Source: an uncultured Marinoscillum sp.
Lineage (GTDB): Bacteria > Bacteroidota > Bacteroidia > Cytophagales > MED-G16
Assembly (NCBI GenBank): GCA_902633975.1
Contig: CACPHX010000001.1
Span: 46,572-110,571, forward strand
Length of the DNA: 64,000 bases
Reading direction: 5' to 3'
Both the position numbers and the translations under genes were made by a program. The notes below the pieces were generated by a model, which saw only the letters and a program-made list of their open reading frames with translations, had not been told where the DNA came from and made no database searches. Positions 8,509-58,239 of this stretch are shown here, one piece after another (positions within the stretch are counted from its first letter, which is position 1; every line of letters starts with the position of its first letter).

Positions 8509-9387
8509 TTAATTTGCACGGGGATGTGATTTCTTGTGAGTTTCTTTAAGCTTCTCTATAGAATTATGAGTATACATTTGTGTTGCAGCTAAACTTTCAT
8601 GGCCTAGCAGGTCTTTTATAGCATTTAAGTCCCCCCCTTTATTCAGTATATGTGTGGCAAAAGAATGCCTTAGAAGATGTGGATTATATTTTTCACTGTT
8701 TATGAAAGATGATAAACATTTTTTTACTATTCTATACACCATCATTGGGTAAAGCTTATTTCCTTTATCTGTTAGAAAGACAAACTCACTTTTAGAAGAT
8801 TTTCTTTTTTTATGATTTAGGTAAAGTTTTGCTTTCGATACAATGTTTTGATTAATTGGTAATATTCTTTCTTTATTCCTTTTACCAAGAACTTTAATTT
8901 CATTTCTTATAAGATCTAAATTTTTATTTTTAAGATTAATTAATTCATTTATTCTAATTCCAGTTCCATATAATAACTCTAAAATTAAATCGCTTCTTGT
9001 CTCATCAATGGTGTTGGACATATTAATTGTTTTAAAAAGACTAACCAAATCTTTTTCCTTTAAAAAAAGTGGGAGTGTTTGTTTTGCTTTCAAACTTTTT
9101 ACAAGTGTGGAAGGATTTTTTTTTATTACTTGTCTTTTAATTAAAAATTTGAAAAAAGATTTGACAGAAGCAATTTTCCTGTTAATTGATTTATTTGATA
9201 GGTTTTTAGTTGATAGCTCTATGATCCAAGCTCTAATTGTTTTGTTATCAATAGAAGATATTTTTTTATTATTCTCGTAATTTTCACTAAATGTTAGGAA
9301 CTGACTTAGGTCGTTATCGTAACTTTTAATTGTATTTTCACTTACTCTTTTTTCAAATTTAAGATGACGGAGAAATTTATCTTTCAT
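8509..9387 (-). CDS. Tyrosine recombinase, XerC/XerD family (housekeeping type)
   Basis: N-terminal SAM-like core-binding domain. Catalytic region GTGIRINEL ... HLLRHSFATH ... LGHESLAATQMYTH. It lies adjacent to rpsU, as in many Flavobacteriia. Confidence 0.8.
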   Translation of the reverse strand: MKDKFLRHLKFEKRVSENTIKSYDNDLSQFLTFSENYENNKKISSIDNKTIRAWIIELSTKNLSNKSINRKIASVKSFFKFLIKRQVIKKNPSTLVKSLKAKQTLPLFLKEKDLVSLFKTINMSNTIDETRSDLILELLYGTGIRINELINLKNKNLDLIRNEIKVLGKRNKERILPINQNIVSKAKLYLNHKKRKSSKSEFVFLTDKGNKLYPMMVYRIVKKCLSSFINSEKYNPHLLRHSFATHILNKGGDLNAIKDLLGHESLAATQMYTHNSIEKLKETHKKSHPRAN

Positions 9388-9674: not shown

Positions 9675-11378
9675 TTACTCATTATATACTTTCTTCCAGT
9701 GTTTGAGCTTAGTCGTTTTACCTATTCCTGGATTAAACCTATTAGTTGGATCTAATTGCTTGTAAAAGTTTAATAGAGAAGGTTTCGCATGATACTCGTG
9801 ACCCACGTTATGTTCAGCTGGATACTCTGCTCCTCTTTTGTCATAGATTTTTAATAATTTTTTCTTTAGCTCTTCACCATCCACCCCTTTTTTTACAATA
9901 TAATTCTGGTGAAGAACATGACAAAAAAGATGTCCGTAGTAAAGTTTCATTTCTAGCAAATCATCAATTTTTTTAGGTAGTTTCTCAAACCAATTTTTTT
10001 CATTTCTTGGAAAAGCGATATCCAGTGACATCATGTCACCATGATTTTTAGAGTTAAGAATATGGTATCTACCAATTGCACTTGCAGAAACAAATCTGTG
10101 CAATGAAGCTTTTTTCGATTCAAATTCATTACAAATAAAATAATCACCATCTTGATTTTTAAAAATTTCACTGAAATACTTTTCTGCCTCTATTATACCT
10201 TCATCAGACATTTCAATAACCCAGTGATGTTCGTACAGATCTCTAAAACTCTCCATCCTTTTTGGTAAATGATTTGGCCAGAAATTACTTAAGAACTGCA
10301 TTAGCCTGTCAGAAAAATTGTCGGGAAAAAATTTGAGTTTCTTAGCTAAAATGTCAACCCTTCTTTTTAATTCGAATAATGTCGGAAGAAATTTGGTCCC
10401 TAATCTTTCTATGACAAGAAATGTATCTTTACTATATTTTTTTGCAGCATCATAACAATCTCTGTGTAAATAGTCACCAAGCGTTGGAAGTGTTTTAAAT
10501 TTTGAAAGAATATCCCTTCGAATATTCCAAAAAACATCAGGGTCGTTAGTTCCAACGTAAAATACTTTATTTTCTTTTGGCAAAGGATAAGTATCAAGCC
10601 TTACAGCAAAAACTGCAAGTTTCCCAGCACTACCTGAAGCACCGTATAATAATCTACTATCAGAATTAAATCTGGACGGGCTGTCCTCATCAATTTTTCT
10701 AATAATTTCTGTGTATTTATCATCAGAACCAAGTTTTCCTGTATTTTTTATATCTGACTTTTTGTAGTTTTTACTTTGGAGGTTGCTTAAAATTTCTTCG
10801 GGACTTGAGCCTAAGTTTATATCTAATTCGTTAATTAGTTCTAATTTTCCATATTTATTAATTTTGGCGTATAATGCCATCTGTGTATATGATGGCCCTC
10901 TTTGGACAAGTGATCCGCCGGCATTATTACAAATTCCACCAATAATCGAAGCACCAATAGATGTAGAGCCAATGATTGAGTGAGGTTCTCTTTTGTATGG
11001 TTTTAATTTTTTTTCAAGATTGTAGAGAGTGCTTCCAGTAAGGCCAATTATTTGTTTTCCATCATTTATAATATGGATATCATCTATTCGCATTGTGTTT
11101 AAGACAATTACCGGTCTCTCGTAATTGTCACCGTAAGGGGTAGATCCTCCGGTTAAGCCTGTATTTGCAGCTTGCATTATTATTATAATGTCTTCTTTCA
11201 CACATAATTCTAAAATCTTCCATATTTCAATCAATGTACCCGGCTTTACTACTGCAAATGCATTTCCCTTACCATATCTCCATCCCTTAGAGTATGGTTG
11301 TTTTTTCCAATCTTCTGTAATTATATATTTGTTTCCAGAAATTTTTTTTATTTCACTAATTATATTTTTAATAGACAT
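9675..11378 (-). CDS. dld: FAD-dependent (quinone-linked) D-lactate dehydrogenase
   Basis: 567 aa. The N-terminal region ...AVVKPGTLIEIWKILELCVKEDIIIIMQAANTGLTGGSTP closely parallels E. coli Dld, and the length matches. Confidence 0.85.
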   Translation of the reverse strand: MSIKNIISEIKKISGNKYIITEDWKKQPYSKGWRYGKGNAFAVVKPGTLIEIWKILELCVKEDIIIIMQAANTGLTGGSTPYGDNYERPVIVLNTMRIDDIHIINDGKQIIGLTGSTLYNLEKKLKPYKREPHSIIGSTSIGASIIGGICNNAGGSLVQRGPSYTQMALYAKINKYGKLELINELDINLGSSPEEILSNLQSKNYKKSDIKNTGKLGSDDKYTEIIRKIDEDSPSRFNSDSRLLYGASGSAGKLAVFAVRLDTYPLPKENKVFYVGTNDPDVFWNIRRDILSKFKTLPTLGDYLHRDCYDAAKKYSKDTFLVIERLGTKFLPTLFELKRRVDILAKKLKFFPDNFSDRLMQFLSNFWPNHLPKRMESFRDLYEHHWVIEMSDEGIIEAEKYFSEIFKNQDGDYFICNEFESKKASLHRFVSASAIGRYHILNSKNHGDMMSLDIAFPRNEKNWFEKLPKKIDDLLEMKLYYGHLFCHVLHQNYIVKKGVDGEELKKKLLKIYDKRGAEYPAEHNVGHEYHAKPSLLNFYKQLDPTNRFNPGIGKTTKLKHWKKVYNE

Positions 11379-12563: not shown

Positions 12564-14528
12564 TTAATTATTATTAAAGAATCTTTCCTCATCACCAGCT
12601 TGATCTTCATCAATAAATTCATAGCTTGTAACTTTAAACTCAGTCCTTCTATTAATTTGATGTTCTTCTTCTGTTTGCGCATTTGTAATTAATAGTTGTG
12701 ATTCTCCGTACCCTTTAGCAATAATTCTATCCTTATTTATTCCTTTATCAATTATGTAAGACACTGCTGACTCAGCTCTTCTTTGAGATAAATCTTGATT
12801 ATAGTCAACAGATGCCCTATCATCCGTATGTGAACTTAATTCAATAGAAATAGATGGATTGTCTCTCATAATAACAACTAATTTATTTAATTCTACAGCA
12901 GCATCAGGTCGAATATCAGATTTGTCTAGATCGTAGTAAATATTATCAAGGAGAATAGCTTTATTCATAACTATTTTATCAAGCACTAAATTTTTTTCAA
13001 ATTCTACTTCAGTTATAAATTCCTTTAATTTGGATTTATCTAGAGATTTCCCAATAGTTGAAAAAATACCTCTCGTATTGAAATAATTTTCCTTCTCCCC
13101 AATCAAAATATAATCTTCTTCAGAATATACTTTGAACTCAAAATTACCATTATTATCTGTGAATGTTTCGTCAATTAAATTCTCGTCTTTATTTAAAAGC
13201 TTTACAACACTGTTCCCAAGAATTTCTAAATCTTCACTATCACCCTTAGGAGTTAGAGTTGATCCTTTTAGTGTATAATTAACAATTTTTAGATTAGGAT
13301 CATTATTAACAAAGGTGTATATATCATCGTCCCCCTTACCTCCAGATCTGTTTGATGTAAAAAATCCTCTTGTTGGATTAAATGGATTTACTCCAAAATC
13401 GTCCCCAGTTGAATTCAACGGCTTACCAGGATTTAAAATTTTAATTTCTCCACCAAACCTTGTAGCTACAAAAATATCCAAACCTCCAAAACCCTCATGA
13501 GTATCAGAAGAAAAGTATAATCTGCCGTCATCTGTTACTGATGGAAAAACTTCATTTCCTTCTGTATTAATTTCAGATCCAAGATTTTGAATATTTATCC
13601 ATCTGCCTCTTCTGTTAAGATTTGCTTTATATATATCCGTCCCACCAAACCCTTTATCTCTATTTGATGCGAAATAAAGAGTTTTGCCATCTTTTGTCAG
13701 AAAAGGAGTGGAGTCCCAGCTTCTGCTAGTATTTACATTAAGTAATCTAGGGTTTGTCCAAGTGCCTCTTCTGTATCTTGAAAAATAAAGATCAACATTA
13801 TTTCTTCCAGAACTTTTTCCATTATTTCCTTTTGCAAAAATCATGTATGTACCATCTTCAGAAAATGTTATAGATCCCTCATTAACATCTTCATTATTTA
13901 TGTTTTCGTTAAGTCTTTTCAAAGTACCTAATTCAACATTCGCTCCTTTTGTAACTACTTCGAATAAATCAGTAAATGGTGTACCAGTTCCTTTATAAAT
14001 TTTTTCCGTTAATCTGTTGGAGACAAAATATAATTTGCCATTAGAGTAAGATGGTGCATAATCAGCGTAACTTGTGTTAATAGCTTGAAGATTTTTTACT
14101 TTATAAAAACTAGTATCTGGATATTTTTTGAGATTGGAAATATAAACTGATTCATTTTGTACCAATTTAATTATTTCTTCGTTTTGTCCAGAAAGTATAT
14201 ATTTTTTTGCTATTGAATCTGCTACATTATATTTATTATTTGCTTTCAGTGATAGAATTAAGTAATAATAAGCCATTTCGTTGTTTAAACCTTGTTCAAT
14301 ACTTTTCAGATAATATTTTTCTGATTCATATATTTGATTAGATTTTCTATATGCTTCAGCTATTAAAAAATTAGTTTTTGGGTCATTCTCTTTTACAACC
14401 TTTTCAAACTTTTTTGCTGCATTATTATATTCAGCATTATTAAAACTTTTTAATGCAGATCTTTTATTAATACATGATTTTAAAAAAATTGATACTATAA
14501 CAAATAATAAAATATTTTTTGTTTTCAT
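12564..14528 (-). CDS. OmpA-family peptidoglycan-associated protein with N-terminal TPR-like region and TolB-like beta-propeller repeats
   Basis: Signal/lipobox-like N-terminus. Repeated ...YFSS/YFAS... WD40-like (TolB-type) units. C-terminal OmpA-like domain (HTDDRASVDYNQDLSQRRAESAVSYI ... NRRTEF). Confidence 0.8.
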   Translation of the reverse strand: MKTKNILLFVIVSIFLKSCINKRSALKSFNNAEYNNAAKKFEKVVKENDPKTNFLIAEAYRKSNQIYESEKYYLKSIEQGLNNEMAYYYLILSLKANNKYNVADSIAKKYILSGQNEEIIKLVQNESVYISNLKKYPDTSFYKVKNLQAINTSYADYAPSYSNGKLYFVSNRLTEKIYKGTGTPFTDLFEVVTKGANVELGTLKRLNENINNEDVNEGSITFSEDGTYMIFAKGNNGKSSGRNNVDLYFSRYRRGTWTNPRLLNVNTSRSWDSTPFLTKDGKTLYFASNRDKGFGGTDIYKANLNRRGRWINIQNLGSEINTEGNEVFPSVTDDGRLYFSSDTHEGFGGLDIFVATRFGGEIKILNPGKPLNSTGDDFGVNPFNPTRGFFTSNRSGGKGDDDIYTFVNNDPNLKIVNYTLKGSTLTPKGDSEDLEILGNSVVKLLNKDENLIDETFTDNNGNFEFKVYSEEDYILIGEKENYFNTRGIFSTIGKSLDKSKLKEFITEVEFEKNLVLDKIVMNKAILLDNIYYDLDKSDIRPDAAVELNKLVVIMRDNPSISIELSSHTDDRASVDYNQDLSQRRAESAVSYIIDKGINKDRIIAKGYGESQLLITNAQTEEEHQINRRTEFKVTSYEFIDEDQAGDEERFFNNN

Positions 14529-51534: not shown

Positions 51535-52713
51535 ATGATAAGATACTTAAATATTTTGATTTTTTTCTTATTTCTTTCCTCGTGCTCTGAGGAAGAAATT
51601 GTACTTGATACAGTTAATGAGGAAGAAGATACTGTTGAGGATATTGATGAGCAAACTGAGGATATTGATGAGGAGGAGGATAGTGATTTTATTAAAGATA
51701 TATTGAAAGCAAAAGGATATGATTTAGATAAATTTTATGTAGGAGCTACCCTTAATACTCAACAGTTAAATACTAATGTAGAAAATGCCTTCCTTAAAGA
51801 GTTTTCATATTCAACTGTTGAGAATAGTGCAAAGCAAAGTATAGTACATCCTGAGCCTGATGTTTGGAAGTGGGAAAGATTAGATAGTTATTTACTCTTT
51901 GCTCAAAGAAATAATATTTCAATAAGAATTCATGGTCCGGTTGGTCCTCAAAGTTCTAAATGGGCTAAAAATGATTCAAGAACTCCAAATGAACTTTTAG
52001 AGAACATGACAGAATATATGACGAATCTTTCACAAAGAATAAATCCAGTTAATTCTGTAAAGTGGATGGATGTTGTCAATGAAACAATTACAACTGATGG
52101 GAAATGGTTTGGTGAAAGACCAGGAGATGATTTGTGGGAGAACCCATGGAAACAGATCGGGATGAACGATGATAATGTTCCAATTTACATATTGAAATCT
52201 TTTGAAATTGCCAACCTGTACGCTAAAAATGTAAAGCTAATTTTTAATCAGCATGGAGGTATGGAAGAAATAATGTGGGAAAAAGTTAAGGAAACTATAA
52301 TTTACTTGAGGAATAAAGGTTATAGAATTGATGGATTGGGCTGGCAAGGTCATCTAAAAGACAACAAAAAATTATCATTGAGTGAAGATCATCTTAACTA
52401 TTTATCGGAATTGATTGACTGGGCACATGAAAATAATTTAGAGTTTCATGTAACTGAAATCGATTATGCTTTATATGATGATCCTCCTTCAACTACCTCT
52501 CTTGACAGACAAGCTAACGGATATTCGAATATACTTAAGCTTTTGATTAATAAAATGAATAATGGTGTTGTTACGTTTAACACGTGGGGTATGGTTGATA
52601 AGACAAATCAGTACAAGTTTATTTTTGATAAGAATTTAAATCCAAAACCGGCTCTTATAAAGCTTAGAGAAACATTAAAAAATAAAAGTACGGATCTTGT
52701 AATCCTTGACTAA
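51535..52713 (+). CDS. Glycoside hydrolase family 10-like lipoprotein with an acidic linker
   Basis: Lipobox LSSCSE and acidic linker EEDTVEDIDEQTEDIDEEEDSD. WMDVVNETI is the GH10 acid/base NE, and FHVTEIDY is the nucleophile (TE.D). Confidence 0.7.
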   Translation: MIRYLNILIFFLFLSSCSEEEIVLDTVNEEEDTVEDIDEQTEDIDEEEDSDFIKDILKAKGYDLDKFYVGATLNTQQLNTNVENAFLKEFSYSTVENSAKQSIVHPEPDVWKWERLDSYLLFAQRNNISIRIHGPVGPQSSKWAKNDSRTPNELLENMTEYMTNLSQRINPVNSVKWMDVVNETITTDGKWFGERPGDDLWENPWKQIGMNDDNVPIYILKSFEIANLYAKNVKLIFNQHGGMEEIMWEKVKETIIYLRNKGYRIDGLGWQGHLKDNKKLSLSEDHLNYLSELIDWAHENNLEFHVTEIDYALYDDPPSTTSLDRQANGYSNILKLLINKMNNGVVTFNTWGMVDKTNQYKFIFDKNLNPKPALIKLRETLKNKSTDLVILD

Positions 52714-53141
52714 TGAAGAAAATATGTTATTTAATTATTATATGTTTTTTTTCAATTTCTGATTCTGTATCACAAAACTTATCAAAAAGAGATAGCATTA
52801 AGCTAAAAAAAATAAATATAGATTTAAATAATATTAGTGTGAAAGATCAATTTCAACTTGAGAATATTTTGTATTTTGACAGGAGAATAAAAGTAAATAA
52901 AGCGTTTAATATTATTCTCCAAGTATTTGCAGCTCCATATATATCGTTGGGAGTTATTTCCCTTGCAACCGTAGGAAGAACTGATCCGACTTGGAGGGGT
53001 CTAAATGTTGTTGCTGGAGTAATTGGTTTTCTAGTGGGAGGATCAATTTATGGTATTTCAAGACCATTTAAGAAAGGGATTATGAGAAATAAAATTTTGA
53101 GAGATAGGCTTATTCATAAATTATCTAGAGGAGGTGATTAA
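52713..53141 (+). CDS. Hypothetical protein with signal peptide and two C-terminal TM segments
   Basis: 142 aa. No recognised motif. ATGA-type overlap with the preceding gene. Confidence 0.4.
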   Translation: MKKICYLIIICFFSISDSVSQNLSKRDSIKLKKINIDLNNISVKDQFQLENILYFDRRIKVNKAFNIILQVFAAPYISLGVISLATVGRTDPTWRGLNVVAGVIGFLVGGSIYGISRPFKKGIMRNKILRDRLIHKLSRGGD

Positions 53142-53247
53142 TTAAAGTTTCGATTAATTAAAACATATTTAATTTTAATTTCTTAGATTTTATTCATAAC
53201 CATTTTAATAATTTTTAAAATCTACATCTTTTTTTTATTTTAGTAAA

Positions 53248-53313
53248 ATGAATTGTGATTGTAAAGTATGTGATTGTAAAGAATCTTGCAGTTGTTCTTG
53301 CTGTGATTACTAG
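53248..53313 (+). CDS. Unannotated 21-aa cysteine-rich peptide (metallothionein-like mini-ORF)
   Basis: Hand translation: ATG AAT TGT GAT TGT AAA GTA TGT GAT TGT AAA GAA TCT TGC AGT TGT TCT TGC TGT GAT TAC TAG = MNCDCKVCDCKESCSCSCCDY. It lies 28 nt upstream of the MerC-like gene on the same strand. The near-consensus -7 box TATTTTAG is at 53237-53244. Confidence 0.35.
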   Translation: MNCDCKVCDCKESCSCSCCDY

Positions 53314-53341
53314 TTCTTAAAATAAATATTGTTTATGTGTT

Positions 53342-53713
53342 ATGAGAATATCGATTGAAAAGCCAGATAATTATGGTGTAGCCTTTAGTTCTCTCTGTAT
53401 GCTTCACTGCTATTTAACTCCTTTTTTATTCCTTACGCAAGGCCATTTATCATTTGTGCCTGGATGGTGGCAAAGTCTCAATTTTTTATTCCTTGCTTTA
53501 TCCTTCCTTGCAATCTGTTTCTCAGTAAAAAATTCAACTAGTTTGGTCGTTAAATTTTTATTATTCACTTTTTGGTTTGCATTGGCATTTCTTCTAATTA
53601 GTGAGGAGTTCGAATTTTTTCATTTGCCAGAGGCAATGACATATGCTGCAGGATTTTCCCTTGCTTTCTTACACATATATAACAAGAAATATTGTAATTG
53701 TAATGAAGGTTAG
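53342..53713 (+). CDS. MerC-domain membrane protein (putative metal-ion transporter, not in a mer operon)
   Basis: 123 aa, four TM segments, N-terminal SSLCMLHC motif in TM1 and a C-terminal cytoplasmic CNCNEG tail. Confidence 0.65.
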   Translation: MRISIEKPDNYGVAFSSLCMLHCYLTPFLFLTQGHLSFVPGWWQSLNFLFLALSFLAICFSVKNSTSLVVKFLLFTFWFALAFLLISEEFEFFHLPEAMTYAAGFSLAFLHIYNKKYCNCNEG

Positions 53714-53750
53714 TGCTGCGTAGACTAATAAATATTCTAGCAAATATTCA

Positions 53751-54643: not shown

Positions 54644-54745
54644 AAAAACAAAAATAATAAATCACCTCACTTTAAAAATCTTTAAATAATTGAAAAAGAT
54701 CGATTAATCAAAGAAATCTGATATGTGTTAAGGTTTTAACTTTAT

Positions 54746-55987
54746 TTAATCAATAAATTTATATGTTGCTGTTTGAAAATCTTTTAAAATACCAAAATCA
54801 GGTTCTATTGAATTTGACATAAATAAACCATATAATTTATTTGTAGGATCAATCCAAAACCATGTATTGTGATATCCTGACCATCCGTATATTCCATTGG
54901 GAGCTCCTGAGCCCCAGGCATCACTATCCTCTAGTACACTAAAGGTAAACCCATAAGCCTGTCCCTCTAATGGAAAAACATTAGGTTCATTAGGGTCTGG
55001 ATATCCATTCGAATATTTTGAAGTCATTATTTTTATGCTTTCCTCAGATATAATTCTATTATTATTATATATACCACCGTTAACAAGCATTTCGCAAAAT
55101 TTAGAGAAATCTGACATCGTAGAAACTAAACCTTCACCACCAAAATGTGCTTTATTATTTTCATCATATGTATATCCATCTAAGGCTCCTGTATATCCTT
55201 CTAAATGAAAATCAGAATTATTGAAAGCAGTATTAGGTTTTATATTAACTCTCAATGGCTGAAACCTTTCTCTGTCATCAGCTGATAAATGAAATTTAGT
55301 GTCATTCATTTCCAGTTTGTCAAAAATGTTTTCCTTTAAATAAGAATAAAAACTCTTATTTGTAACAACCTCTATGAACCTTCCTAGGATTGCTTGATTT
55401 ATACCATAAGTATACATTGTACCTGGCTCAAAATCTAAAGGTATTTTAGAAACGAATTTCGAGTAATCATCAAGATTATTAAATCTAACTGGATTTGTAA
55501 ATGCAGGGTGTAAATCAGTGTGCAGAGATGTTACCCAATTTGCGTAATTGTTTGCATAGTATGAGTAACCGGACCTATGTGTTAACAAATGAATTACTTT
55601 TAATTTTTCCTCACAAGGATAAACTCCGTCAGATCCTTTACATTTAATATCACCATACTCAGGCAAGTAATCAGATAAATTATCATTAAGGTTGTATTTA
55701 CCCTCTTCTAACAAAATCATCATAGCAACAGTGGTTACAGTTTTGGTCATAGACCATATAGGAAATATAGTATTTTCATCAATATCTTTATCTCCCAAAG
55801 CACCAGAGTTAGCAATATTATTGTATACTATTTCTCCGTCTTTAAATACCTGTGTCACATTTGAGCCCGTGATACCTTTATCCACTAAATTTTTTTGAAA
55901 CTCTTCAATTGGATTTGTGTTTTGATTGGGACTTTTACAACTAAATGCAATTAGTATTATTGAGTAAAATAGAATAATTTTTTTCAT
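54746..55987 (-). CDS. Serine hydrolase of the beta-lactamase/transpeptidase-like (class C/esterase) family, lipoprotein
   Basis: Lipobox IAFSCKS, active-site SMTK (IWSMTKTV), and a later YSY/YAN region; 413 aa. Confidence 0.8.
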   Translation of the reverse strand: MKKIILFYSIILIAFSCKSPNQNTNPIEEFQKNLVDKGITGSNVTQVFKDGEIVYNNIANSGALGDKDIDENTIFPIWSMTKTVTTVAMMILLEEGKYNLNDNLSDYLPEYGDIKCKGSDGVYPCEEKLKVIHLLTHRSGYSYYANNYANWVTSLHTDLHPAFTNPVRFNNLDDYSKFVSKIPLDFEPGTMYTYGINQAILGRFIEVVTNKSFYSYLKENIFDKLEMNDTKFHLSADDRERFQPLRVNIKPNTAFNNSDFHLEGYTGALDGYTYDENNKAHFGGEGLVSTMSDFSKFCEMLVNGGIYNNNRIISEESIKIMTSKYSNGYPDPNEPNVFPLEGQAYGFTFSVLEDSDAWGSGAPNGIYGWSGYHNTWFWIDPTNKLYGLFMSNSIEPDFGILKDFQTATYKFID

Positions 55988-56127
55988 GCTTAAATATCTT
56001 AATGTTTATGTAAACCTAAAATAATTAAAAATATAATCAATCCGAAATGTTTAGTTTAAACTACTTATAGGGTTCATTATTCTTATATTAGATGGAGTAC
56101 AGAGGTGTATATATTAAAAGAAAAAAA

Positions 56128-56176
56128 TGGTGGAAGACCGGACTTGAACTGGCGACCTCCAGAACCAAAATCAGAA
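56128..56176 (-). repeat. Diverged copy (A) of a tRNA 3' half, anticodon-loop equivalent to 3' end
   Basis: The reverse complement tctgattttggttctggaggtcgccagttcaagtccggtcttccacca aligns with the 3' half of the tRNA-His gene at 58111-58157. It has several substitutions, including TTG in place of GTG. Confidence 0.7.
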
Positions 56177-56220
56177 CTGTTAAAGAAGTTTTCATATTCT
56201 TTGATTAATCAAGTTTAGAC

Positions 56221-56740
56221 TTATCTTCTTTTATATGGATATTGCCCAATCCAATTTCCTGCTGGATAATATCTAGCTACTACATATACAACCCCATTGT
56301 TTTTTACTGATGCAATTCCAACTTCTTTAGTATCATCCCAAACCATCTGAGTATAATGTCCAACCATTTTAGTGCTGAATCTAAACTTACGTATTTTCGA
56401 ATATTTATAATCTTTTTTTTTCTTCATACCAAGCTATCGAAGCATCATATAACGGGTAATCTGAATATGTATATGTAATGTTTTTTCTAGAACTCCATTC
56501 CCAGGATGATTCCTTATATAAATTTTCTCCACTTTTGGTTTTGCTATGTTTAAATTTATTATTCTTAGCAAGAAATCTGGCATAATTCAGGGCTTGTTTT
56601 TCTAGTTTTTTAGACCAAACTAATGGCGCAACTCCAACTAGTTTTCTCGCTTTATTATGAATTTCTAGTGCCTTTTTTTTATCATTTTCTTGTGAAAACG
56701 TGATAAAAGGAAGAAGAAATGATAATAATATAATTTTCAA
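56221..56740 (-). pseudogene. CAP/SCP/PR-1-domain secreted protein, split by a +1 frameshift in an A9 run
   Basis: ORFs 56405..56740 (signal peptide + ALEIHNKARK...WYEEKK) and 56221..56427 (...GHYTQMVWDDTKEVG...YVVARYYPAGN) are the two halves of one CAP domain. Removing one A from the run at 56413-56421 fuses them. Confidence 0.8.
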
Positions 56741-56876
56741 AATGTAATATTTAAATCTCTAACGTAAATAAGTTTAAAACATTGTTCATTGAACCAACCT
56801 TAAAGGCCTCAAAAGATTGATTAATCAATAACTGTAAAATAACTGTCAGAATTATTTATATTGTAGAAGAAAAAAC

Positions 56877-56944
56877 TGCAAGCATTGTAAGAAAAAAGGG
56901 TGGAAGATCGGACTAGAACCGGCGACCTCCTGAACCACAATCAG
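56877..56944 (-). repeat. Copy (B) of the tRNA-His 3' half plus 21 nt of its downstream flank
   Basis: 66/68 identical to 58090-58157 by direct comparison. The two substitutions fall in the T loop and T stem. A weaker similarity extends to 56811 (versus 58024). Confidence 0.85.
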
Positions 56945-56953
56945 AAAAACAAT

Positions 56954-57009
56954 ATGTTAAGTTTGCTTAACATAATTAATTTCCTATATTTGTAAAGTTA
57001 ACTTAACAT
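56954..57009 (+). promoter_or_regulatory. Candidate promoter (TTTG-N19-TATATTTG) with an overlapping palindromic operator for the 57019-58033 cassette
   Basis: The inverted repeat ATGTTAAG (56954-61) / CTTAACAT (56966-73) brackets the -33 TTTG (56962-65). The -7 box TATATTTG is at 56985-92. A third half-site, CTTAACAT, lies at 57002-09, just before the ATG at 57019. Confidence 0.45.
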
Positions 57010-57018
57010 TTAATATTT

Positions 57019-57378
57019 ATGAAAACTAAAATTTTAAGAATTATGGGTTTACTTGTAGGAATTATTGCATCGTTAATTATTGAGCTTTTTTATCAAGGAG
57101 GTGTACTTTTTATGTCTATCATAACAATTCTATTAATAGGCACTATTGTTAGTTATTTTAAGTATCCAGAGAAAATTAAACTGTTTGGTAATATGTCATT
57201 AGCTGTTGGTATTCTCGGGTCATTTATAGGTCTTTATACAGCTTTTGAATTTATTCAACAAGCTGGAAATGTATCACCAGCTATCTTAGCAGGTGGGCTT
57301 AAGGTGGCTTTTACAACAACTATGTATGGTCTTATTGTTTATATTTTTTCATTAGGCTTGAACTTAGTTAAAGGATAA
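57019..57378 (+). CDS. Small MotA/TolQ/ExbB-like proton-channel-family membrane protein (119 aa, three TM)
   Basis: The C-terminal SPAILAGGLKVAFTTTMYGLIVYIFSL resembles the conserved MotA/ExbB channel helix pair. There is no ExbD/TonB/MotB partner nearby. Confidence 0.55.
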   Translation: MKTKILRIMGLLVGIIASLIIELFYQGGVLFMSIITILLIGTIVSYFKYPEKIKLFGNMSLAVGILGSFIGLYTAFEFIQQAGNVSPAILAGGLKVAFTTTMYGLIVYIFSLGLNLVKG

Positions 57379-57387
57379 AATTTTAAT

Positions 57388-57828
57388 ATGAATTTTTCGA
57401 AAAAAGAATTATCAATTTTAATTGAAATTGTATTTAGTATTTTATTTGCAATTTTTTTCTTACCATATTTTTATGATAACAGATTTGAAACATATGATTT
57501 AAATAAATCTGTAAATAAGCTAATTCAAATAACTATTTTTTCAATAATATATTTTTCATTAGCGTATACATTACTTGAAATTTTTATTAAGAAAAAATTA
57601 ATTAATGATGAAAGGGACATTCTCATCGATTTAAAATCATATAAACTCGGATATATTTTATATGAAATCAGTTTATGTTTATTTATTGGAGTTATTTTGT
57701 CAGTTGCGATATTTGACAGCCAAATGTATCAAAACAGCGGGGGATTAGTTTTTATGATTGTGCTATGGTTAGTATTAGTATCATTTATTAAATCTGCATA
57801 TCAACTCTATTTGTATAGAACATCATAG
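57388..57828 (+). CDS. Four-TM membrane protein of unknown function (DUF2975/DUF2178-like partner of small XRE regulators)
   Basis: 146 aa, four hydrophobic helices and a central NDERDILI motif. The family name is from memory of the recurrent membrane-protein + 67-aa HTH gene pair. Confidence 0.4.
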   Translation: MNFSKKELSILIEIVFSILFAIFFLPYFYDNRFETYDLNKSVNKLIQITIFSIIYFSLAYTLLEIFIKKKLINDERDILIDLKSYKLGYILYEISLCLFIGVILSVAIFDSQMYQNSGGLVFMIVLWLVLVSFIKSAYQLYLYRTS

Positions 57829-57829
57829 T

Positions 57830-58033
57830 ATGGTATTAAAAAATATTTTGAAAGAAGTTCGTCAGAAAAAAAAACTAACTCAGGAAGAACTTGGAGATTC
57901 AGTCGGTGTAAGTAGGCAGACAATAATATCTATTGAAACTTATAGGTATAAACCAACTTTAGAATTAGCAATGAAACTTTCAATGAAATTAAATTGTAAA
58001 ATTGATAAGTTATTTTATTTTGAAAAAGATTGA
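57830..58033 (+). CDS. XRE/Cro-C1-family helix-turn-helix transcriptional regulator (67 aa)
   Basis: LTQEELGDSVGVSRQTIISIETYRYKPTLELAMKLS is a canonical HTH_3-type motif. It starts 2 nt after the preceding gene. Confidence 0.85.
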   Translation: MVLKNILKEVRQKKKLTQEELGDSVGVSRQTIISIETYRYKPTLELAMKLSMKLNCKIDKLFYFEKD

Positions 58034-58110
58034 TTAATCAAAGGTGCCAAATAAGTGCCAAGATTTTATATCTTTATACGTAAGTAAAGTGCAAGCATTG
58101 TAAGAAAAAA

Positions 58111-58186
58111 GGGTGGAAGACCGGACTCGAACCGGCGACCTCCTGAACCACAATCAGGCGTTCTAACCAACTGAACTACAACCACC
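58111..58186 (-). tRNA. tRNA-His (anticodon GTG) with encoded G-1; acceptor stem carries two adjacent U-U mismatches
   Basis: Hand fold of the reverse complement: G-1, GTGGTTG, TA, D stem GTTC/GAAC, anticodon stem CCTGA/TCAGG, loop TTGTGGT, T stem GCCGG/CCGGT, loop TTCGAGT, 3' acceptor CTTCCAC, discriminator C. Confidence 0.8.
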
Positions 58187-58239
58187 ATTTTGATTCAGCA
58201 AATCTAGAATAATGTTCTAACTAAGACAAATTAAATTAT

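Follow-up and report, generated by a model that had tools for sequence, protein, structure and literature searches.

An intact tRNA-His gene in the 64-kb window analysed here (the whole stretch of DNA; guanine-cytosine (GC) content ~30%; closest genome record, the uncultured Marinoscillum sp. single-amplified genome (SAG) AG-895-E03) is followed on its own strand by two partial copies of its 3′ half, which set off two small islets of genes. Islet 2 is a 1.2-kb three-gene cassette between core C, within the intact tRNA, and core B; islet 1 is a 0.77-kb cassette between core B and core A. Comparison with related loci showed that cassettes of this kind are discrete mobile units, bounded by the tRNA-derived core and exchanged among lineages. 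On balance, we favour reading the locus as a tRNA-His-anchored additive genomic island of micro-cassettes that have no integrase, resemble cis-mobilizable elements (CIMEs) and would have been inserted in trans by a tyrosine integrase of the anticodon-loop type. The tRNA and its core copies are located as follows.

58111-58185, minus strand: intact tRNA-His(gtg), called by ARAGORN and by Rfam (tRNA, 61 bits), with G-1 at 58186.
58111-58157, minus strand: core C, the 3′ 47 nt of the tRNA and the attL-like array junction; no substitutions by fuzzy search.
56898-56944, minus strand: core B, the junction of islet 2 and islet 1; two substitutions relative to the 47-nt tRNA 3′ half.
56128-56174, minus strand: core A, the most decayed core copy; five substitutions relative to the same 47 nt.

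The fuzzy-search query was the 47-nt segment that begins with the 5′ strand of the anticodon stem and closes with the 3′ end of the tRNA. A first-pass annotation, made from the letters alone, had described a minus-strand tRNA-His with two tandem direct copies of its 3′ half, and ARAGORN, Rfam and a repeat finder agree with it; the last reported a single three-copy direct family at 56103-56174 (71%), 56873-56944 (reference) and 58086-58157 (96%), spaced by 770 and 1213 nt. The two substitutions assigned to the T loop and T stem of copy B were recovered by fuzzy search (TTCGAGT>TTCTAGT and CCGGT>CCGAT, respectively), as was the greater divergence of copy A (five vs two). Copies B and C are alignable over the 134 nt originally given, i.e. 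87 nt past the tRNA end, this figure being indirect in that it is the copy C of related locus L001, nearly identical to that of the window, that is 83.8% identical to 56811-56944. The annotated islet contents were likewise confirmed, namely a frameshifted CAP-domain gene in islet 1 and MotA/ExbB-like, transmembrane (TM) and XRE genes in islet 2, and none of them has an integrase domain by Pfam. Across the locus Rfam matched the tRNA only, two sub-threshold HPnc0260 matches being noise. Every 3′-half copy found sits at the tRNA-His locus, and no partial copies of the tRNA-Phe of the window were found.

Related loci were anchored on the adjacent dihydroorotase (DHO) gene; 160 loci were fetched, 20 of them from the same marine Cytophagales group, and the exact MotA-like protein of islet 2 gave 10 additional contexts (L161-L170), for a total of 30 related loci. 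The order gcvP-DHO-tRNA-His is kept in 30 of 30 and tRNA-His is 100% identical across all of them, while the sequence after the tRNA varies. On backbones 96-98% identical to that of the window, zero, one or more cassettes are present (L081, L083, L001, L082, L169 and the window itself). L081 has an empty site, o128 being the gene directly after the tRNA; in L083 the serine-hydrolase flank comes next to the tRNA, and the site is empty for both islets. Seven others (L001, L082, L161, L162, L164, L167 and L168) have islet 2, a single 47-nt copy and then o128, and in L169 islet 2 is followed by a copy, a Kelch-repeat gene (429 aa), a second copy and a further arm of the kind described below. Other cassettes follow islet 2 in several loci, encoding a 239-aa protein in L092 and L165, the Kelch protein in L169 and a DUF4920 protein in L170.

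Both L002 and L092 have islet 2 on backbones ~70% identical to that of the window. For L092, backbone identity to the window is 73% in gcvP and 70% in DHO, vs 99.8-100% in the arm, the XRE, TM and MotA-like genes and the cassette-specific end (P-arm); there is one mismatch in ~1150 nt, and identity stops inside the tRNA and inside the distal repeat. Its islet 2 is followed by a core copy, an arm, the 239-aa gene and a third core copy. The reverse is seen in L082, where the backbone is 97% identical to the window and islet 2 is a different allele, with a TM gene at 84%.

Metagenome evidence was taken from Logan contigs (k=31), which break at the 47-nt repeat. In run X2 a contig links 56126 with 58118, and in run X1 a loose end links the tRNA with the o128 flank; the same cassette polymorphism therefore occurs within single marine samples. 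Depth in the metagenomes examined was 60-100x for the backbone, 5-16x for islet 2 and 0-2x for the CAP islet, and in run X3 islet 2 was present without a window-type backbone.

The first-pass annotation had taken the repeats for attachment (att) scars of successive insertions into tRNA-His and had proposed aligning the locus across relatives. The alignment supports that reading, with empty sites in L081, L083 and the Logan contigs and with alternative cargo between the repeats. Strict conservation or a generic dispersed repeat would have spoken against it; what was found is presence/absence variation and a repeat specific to the tRNA-His locus. Of the two origins left open, small mobilised cassettes fit all the data, whereas a static deletion remnant is contradicted by a unit that, with its ends, is 99.8-100% identical on 70-73% backbones.

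The boundaries of the units are equally regular. The core begins at the CTGA of the anticodon stem in every cassette, with the intact tRNA retained, and in four unrelated cassettes the identity block has the same limits, the 5′ strand of the anticodon stem and the 3′ end of the tRNA, their specific ends meeting the next core at the identical base. A core-sized 47-nt repeat was found after the islet 2, CAP, 239-aa and Kelch cassettes. In L089, the distal end of islet 2 retains only CTGATTGTGG before unrelated DNA, the break falling within the anticodon loop, and at 11217 of the same locus only the last 13 nt of the tRNA are left, plus arm B. Core A is the original 3′ end of the tRNA, displaced outward by two insertions, because its outer flank equals the flank found directly after the intact tRNA in L083 (window 56174-54701 vs L083 11421-12891, 95.8% identical). 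Cassettes are 0.8-1.4 kb in size and hold single genes or one three-gene operon, with cargo on both strands: the XRE operon and the Kelch gene point one way, and the CAP and DUF4920 genes the opposite way.

In most units the core is followed by a conserved arm of ~68 nt (to 87 nt), which travels with at least 10 different cargos. It consists of TTTTTT plus CTTACAATGCTTGCA, two short direct repeats 11 nt apart, often TTGATTAATCAA and sometimes GCCTTTAAGG. In the window the arms are arranged as follows.

58024-58110, minus strand: arm C, element-borne, directly 3′ of the tRNA; from motif positions and an alignment of 17 distinct arms.
58090-58104, minus strand: block 1 of arm C, CTTACAATGCTTGCA, by motif search.
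58044-58061, minus strand: block 2 of arm C, TTGGCAC-N4-TTGGCAC, by motif search.
58030-58041: palindrome of arm C, a perfect copy of TTGATTAATCAA overlapping the XRE stop codon.
56798-56897, minus strand: arm B, the other arm allele, by motif search and arm alignment.
56877-56891, minus strand: block 1 of arm B.
56832-56848, minus strand: block 2 of arm B, TGACAGTTATT-TtACAGTTATT.
56817-56828, minus strand: palindrome of arm B, a perfect copy of TTGATTAATCAA.
56798-56807, minus strand: block 4 of arm B, GCCTTTAAGG.

Block 2 distinguishes the alleles, being TTGGCAC twice in C1 and C2 and TGACAG(TTATT) twice in B; in the alignment of 17 distinct arms its paired repeats vary in concert. Near-identical versions of arm alleles C1, C2 and B recur in at least five backbone lineages, which are 20-30% apart in DHO. 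All three are present within one lineage, the arm being discordant with the backbone phylogeny. Arm B, for instance, matches the tRNA-proximal arms of two loci with 70%-identical backbones, at 95.6% identity in L002 and 97.4% in L089. Judged by sequence comparison, the arm is element-borne and not native flank, because its alleles are near-identical across divergent lineages and all three occur within one. The arm is missing from empty sites, and the block 1 and block 2 motifs have no occurrence elsewhere in the 64-kb window. Perfect copies of TTGATTAATCAA are likewise confined within the window to the tRNA-His locus (56201-56212, 56817-56828 and 58030-58041), with a near-copy at 54700-54711 (one mismatch); one copy lies over the XRE stop codon and the rest at cassette ends. 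Possible roles for the palindrome are as an operator of XRE or as an accessory site for recombination; it may also simply be left over from XRE gene ends. Two other readings of the arm were dropped: a terminator-like hairpin in arm C relies on G-U pairs and is missing in arm B, so that block 2 was read as direct repeats, and a sigma-54-like reading of TTGGCAC-N4-TTGGCA fails for arm B, which has neither the GG nor the GC.

On the tRNA strand, each cassette reads as the 47-nt tRNA-derived core, usually an arm of ~68-87 nt, the gene or tiny operon and a cassette-specific end, with the intact tRNA as the proximal junction and copies B and A as distal junctions. By the mechanism we favour, cassettes would enter as circles bearing an attP-like site and recombine in the anticodon loop of tRNA-His, a lambda-type tyrosine integrase being supplied in trans by another locus or by a transient helper element, and the paired arm repeats are candidate arm-type binding sites. 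The att sites of anticodon-loop-type integrases are said, after Williams (2002, NAR), to run from the anticodon stem to the tRNA 3′ end. The core found here spans the anticodon stem to the tRNA 3′ end and the tRNA is regenerated; the geometry is therefore that of an anticodon-loop tyrosine-integrase att site. Further, the paired repeats lie one helical turn apart and ~45-65 nt from the core, which would be the expected position of arm-type sites.

Integrases were looked for at several levels. None was found in any cassette by Pfam, nor in the islet ORFs (open reading frames) by Pfam, NCBIfam or PHROGs. For L161-L170, searched through precomputed Pfam matches, none occurred among genes within 8-10 kb in the eight contexts reaching that far, the other two contigs being shorter than 6 kb. 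None was seen in the ORFs checked downstream in L086, L089 and L090, in the neighbouring ORFs of L092, or, apart from the XerC/D-like gene described below, in the other ORFs of the window, these last judged by eye from translations. When the Xer protein of the window was compared by phmmer with ORFs of at least 150 aa in 170 loci, the sole hit was an Arm-DNA-bind_5/Phage_integrase protein in L072; it lies beside tRNA-Lys, not tRNA-His, and was set aside as irrelevant.

Several observations weigh against an integrase acting in trans. No integrase targeting this site was identified in the searches above. The sole tyrosine recombinase of the window is XerC/D-like (292 aa, 8509-9387, minus strand); it scores 297 bits against TIGR02224 (XerC), under the equivalog cut-off of 335, and 113 bits against the integron-integrase model (cut-off 265), and it lies in a housekeeping context 47 kb from the array. 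Exact scans of IMG/VR with core plus arm and with the 47-nt core alone returned 0 matches, hence no viral attP candidate, and in a blastn comparison of the locus with 50,697 phage records the only matches were to phage tRNA genes. The Kelch cassette of L169 has no arm; arm and cargo reassort, the XRE cassette having arm B in L002 and arm C in the window; and L089 has at 13023-13076 a hybrid arm with one C-type and one B-type repeat (TTGGCAC...TTGACAG), which means that recombination occurs between the two arm alleles. The arm could be extended homology instead of a protein-binding site.

Taken together, the armless Kelch cassette, the reassortment of arm and cargo and the hybrid arm mean that homologous recombination clearly acts here too, and RecA-mediated exchange clearly contributes to arm/cargo reassortment and to junction loss. 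The main rival, less likely but possible, is that RecA does all the work: an ancient integrase event would have made the first repeat, and cassettes would since have been looped out, re-inserted (Campbell-type) and swapped by recombination on the 47-nt core, or on the ~115-135 nt of core plus arm, after DNA uptake, with no present-day site-specific recombinase. The loss of internal cores with fusion of cassettes (DUF4920-XRE in L089; site X in the window, described below) would be accounted for in this way, as would the movement of the serine-hydrolase unit without any core, the failure to find an integrase and the fact that transferred tracts end in the only sequences common to divergent genomes. 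Filling an empty site across lineages would nevertheless require crossovers within 28 nt and 47 nt of homology. RecA-dependent recombination depends on homology length, and crossovers over stretches so short are very inefficient. Moreover, the left identity edge is always at the anticodon stem in unrelated cassettes and the L089 break lies inside the anticodon loop, both of which point to a site-specific crossover, and the change in concert of arm repeats spaced by 11 nt likewise counts against RecA alone.

A second alternative is that the islets are deletion end products of once-large, integrase-bearing islands, immobile and vertically inherited. The inactivating substitutions of copies A and B, the frameshift of the CAP gene and the decayed arms and cores at site X and at 11217 and 13023 of L089 are what such remnants would show. 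Against this stand the 1.2-kb unit with identical ends on 70%-identical backbones, different islet-2 alleles within 97%-identical backbones, empty sites in 98%-identical genomes and the lack of any trace of integrase pseudogenes. Static inheritance is contradicted for islet 2 and could hold for the CAP islet alone; as an account of the locus it is very improbable. Least probable of all is movement by a housekeeping XerC/D-like recombinase, as with integrative mobile elements exploiting Xer (IMEX) or the pdif modules of Acinetobacter: the XerC/D-like gene is indeed the only recombinase in the window and the cassettes have none of their own, but the site is a tRNA 3′ half with no dif-like 11-6-11 architecture by inspection (no formal dif search was made), and the gene is 47 kb away in its housekeeping context.

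Returning to insertion by an integrase in trans, a more specific form of it can be put forward tentatively. The locus may be a tRNA-His cassette-capture platform, integron-like in logic and not in parts, in which ~1-kb cassettes, each with a module of ~115-135 nt (tRNA 3′ half plus paired-repeat arm), are excised, exchanged and inserted across at least five species- to genus-level lineages by a dedicated recombinase that another locus or a rare helper would encode, the arm alleles TTGGCAC x2 and TGACAG x2 marking two specificities.

Among known systems, the closest parallels are additive flexible genomic islands (fGIs) beside tRNA genes, as described for Alteromonas (PMC4898812) and for the tRNA-Lys fGI of a Candidatus taxon (see also PMC10872708). 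As in those islands, the tRNA is a fixed hotspot at the same chromosomal site across strains and species, the number and kind of cassettes vary between strains, a partial tRNA direct repeat lies downstream of each cassette, and near-identical cassettes occur in divergent genomes; the locus thus has all the defining features of an additive fGI. It differs in that the cassettes are single genes or a three-gene operon of 0.8-1.4 kb, and in that the repeat is a full 47-nt anticodon-to-3′-end block plus a ~68-nt paired-repeat arm. We know of no such island from a ~30% GC marine Cytophagales lineage.

A CIME is a cis-mobilizable element that keeps attL and attR and has no integrase or transfer genes (PMC5704250). 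The islets fit this operational definition: as in the accretion related to ICESt1, an integrative and conjugative element (ICE), att sites are kept without integration or transfer genes, tandem units occupy the 3′ end of a tRNA gene, and another element is proposed to supply the recombinase for movement. Neither a parent nor a helper is known, however, and whereas CIMEs are recognisably decayed ICEs or integrative and mobilizable elements (IMEs) of several kb beside a related integrase-bearing element, here no integrase remnant or helper appears in the ~30 contexts and the units are ~10x smaller and spread alone across lineages. With the tycheposons of Prochlorococcus, which are 4-200 kb in size and have their own tyrosine or serine recombinase and replication/packaging modules (10.1101/2020.12.28.424599), the locus shares a streamlined marine host, integration at tRNA genes, tandem elements with a partial tRNA between them, older partial tRNAs scattered in the island and outward displacement of older elements by newer arrivals; none of the tycheposon recombinase, replication or packaging genes is present.

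The comparison with integrons made at first pass holds for the architecture and not for membership. Like an integron, the locus is an ordered array of single-gene cassettes at one platform, the same cassette recurs in different arrays and positions, and each cassette has a recombination module of ~50-135 nt. Unlike in an integron, no intI with attI adjoins the array, a tRNA 3′ half plus arm takes the place of the attC hairpin, and the cassettes stand in both orientations and are therefore not driven by a common Pc promoter. A classical integrase-bearing tRNA island or prophage has the same identity block, from anticodon stem/loop to 3′ end, with an intact tRNA regenerated, but also an integrase within the element beside the att junction, which is lacking here.

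Streamlined pelagic bacteria have few classical mobile elements and yet large pangenomes, and the locus bears on how single genes enter and leave such genomes. Sites that are empty, hold one cassette or hold several form an unusually clean natural series here, and hosts that diverge by 30% share one 1.2-kb unit. The series shows that one-gene units lacking their own recombinase pass between lineages at a tRNA hotspot. Should a trans-acting integrase be responsible, the result would be a minimal cassette system, parallel to that of integrons, with a defined ~130-nt substrate for experiments; if there is no such integrase, short tRNA-derived repeats alone would suffice to move cassettes through homologous recombination.

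The cargo of islet 2 and its cassette-specific end are as follows.

57019-57378, plus strand: gene 1, a 119-aa mini MotA/ExbB-family membrane protein (PF01618, E=2.6e-10).
57388-57828, plus strand: gene 2, a 146-aa membrane protein (four or five hydrophobic segments; no family match).
57830-58033, plus strand: gene 3, a 67-aa XRE-type helix-turn-helix (HTH) regulator (PF01381, HTH_3, E=3.7e-15).
56945-57018, no strand assigned: P-arm 2, the cassette-specific end of islet 2, from the sequence and inverted repeat I2.

P-arm 2 has a perfect 20-bp (8+4+8) palindrome, ATGTTAAG-TTTG-CTTAACAT, at 56954-56973, and a third CTTAACAT half-site at 57002-57009, just upstream of the MotA-like/TM/XRE operon; palindrome and half-site are a candidate autoregulatory operator. 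It is 100% conserved together with islet 2 in L001, L092, L162 and L169. MotA-like proteins of 99-119 aa form a family in marine Bacteroidota, and the index of the collection lists the identical protein in 86 blocks. Its distant homologues are solitary chromosomal genes and a 70%-identical three-gene cassette was found in a non-tRNA context without core or arm, the cargo of islet 2 therefore being an ordinary module and not a mobility module. The XRE protein gave regulator-type matches only (NCBIfam, PADLOC and PHROGs), and the same three resources assigned no cargo function beyond the HTH regulator, apart from a weak ZorA-like match of the MotA-like protein (E about 7e-4). PADLOC made no defence call, and islet 2 was accordingly not called a defence system. 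Low-depth metatranscriptome contigs cover two of its genes (the MotA-like gene in three runs, and 57560-57798 of the 146-aa gene), and sampled words cover 82-95% of islet 2 in at least 14 metagenomes from 2014-2025.

Islet 1 and the region beyond core A hold the following features.

56221-56740, minus strand: islet 1 cargo, a frameshifted gene for a CAP/SCP-domain secreted protein (PF00188).
56177-56220, no strand assigned: the cassette-specific end of islet 1, from the sequence, with a perfect TTGATTAATCAA at 56201-56212.
54746-56127, minus strand: the serine-hydrolase unit (beta-lactamase family, 413 aa; PF00144, E=2e-50) with its upstream flank.
54690-54738, minus strand: site X, the decayed remainder of an arm, consisting of block 2 and the palindrome (the XRE 3′ end), 78% identical to 58020-58068.

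The CAP gene is split into two overlapping ORFs, 56405-56740 and 56221-56427, each of which matches PF00188, by a +1 frameshift due to a single extra base in a 9-nt homopolymer (T9, plus strand, 56413-56421). A true pseudogene, a slippage-prone tract or a sequencing error could each explain it, and no second copy of the CAP cassette was found.

L083 has the serine-hydrolase unit, L081, L001 and L082 lack it, and in L085 and L086 it lies behind the PEMT gene; its depth was 16-21x vs 60-75x for the backbone in run X2 and 0 in X1. When the junctions of the window, L083, L081 and L086 were compared, site X was found to be joined to the native o128 flank via a shared TTTTTCAA. From its resemblance to the XRE end, site X would be the scar of a lost XRE-type cassette and a fourth boundary of the array; if it is read in this way, the serine-hydrolase unit would be a third, older cassette whose distal core has been lost. 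In L089 the DUF4920 gene is fused to the XRE cassette with no core between them, which shows that old cassette junctions decay and fuse. The element-borne 87-nt arm, the fourth scar at 54690-54738 and the variable serine-hydrolase unit go beyond what the first-pass annotation had noticed.

Past the PEMT gene there is renewed divergence between the window and its 98% relatives (window 51535-53750 vs L001 10154-17784 and L161). The relatives have ~5 kb there, encoding a 176-aa protein, NHL, CobW, SGL and TPR proteins and a 144-aa protein, vs a MerC-like gene only in the window; the flexible region therefore reaches well beyond the tRNA repeats. The adjacent GH10-like and 142-aa genes have protein identities of only 68% and 49%.

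On the tRNA side, the contigs of L003, L084, L087, L093, L094, L096 and L097 end within tRNA-His or the arm, or at most ~100 nt beyond, as expected of assemblers that face several alternative continuations. The 57-nt spacer between DHO and the tRNA (window 58186-58239) is 92.5% identical to that of L092 despite coding genes of 70% identity, and is probably conserved as the promoter region of the tRNA.

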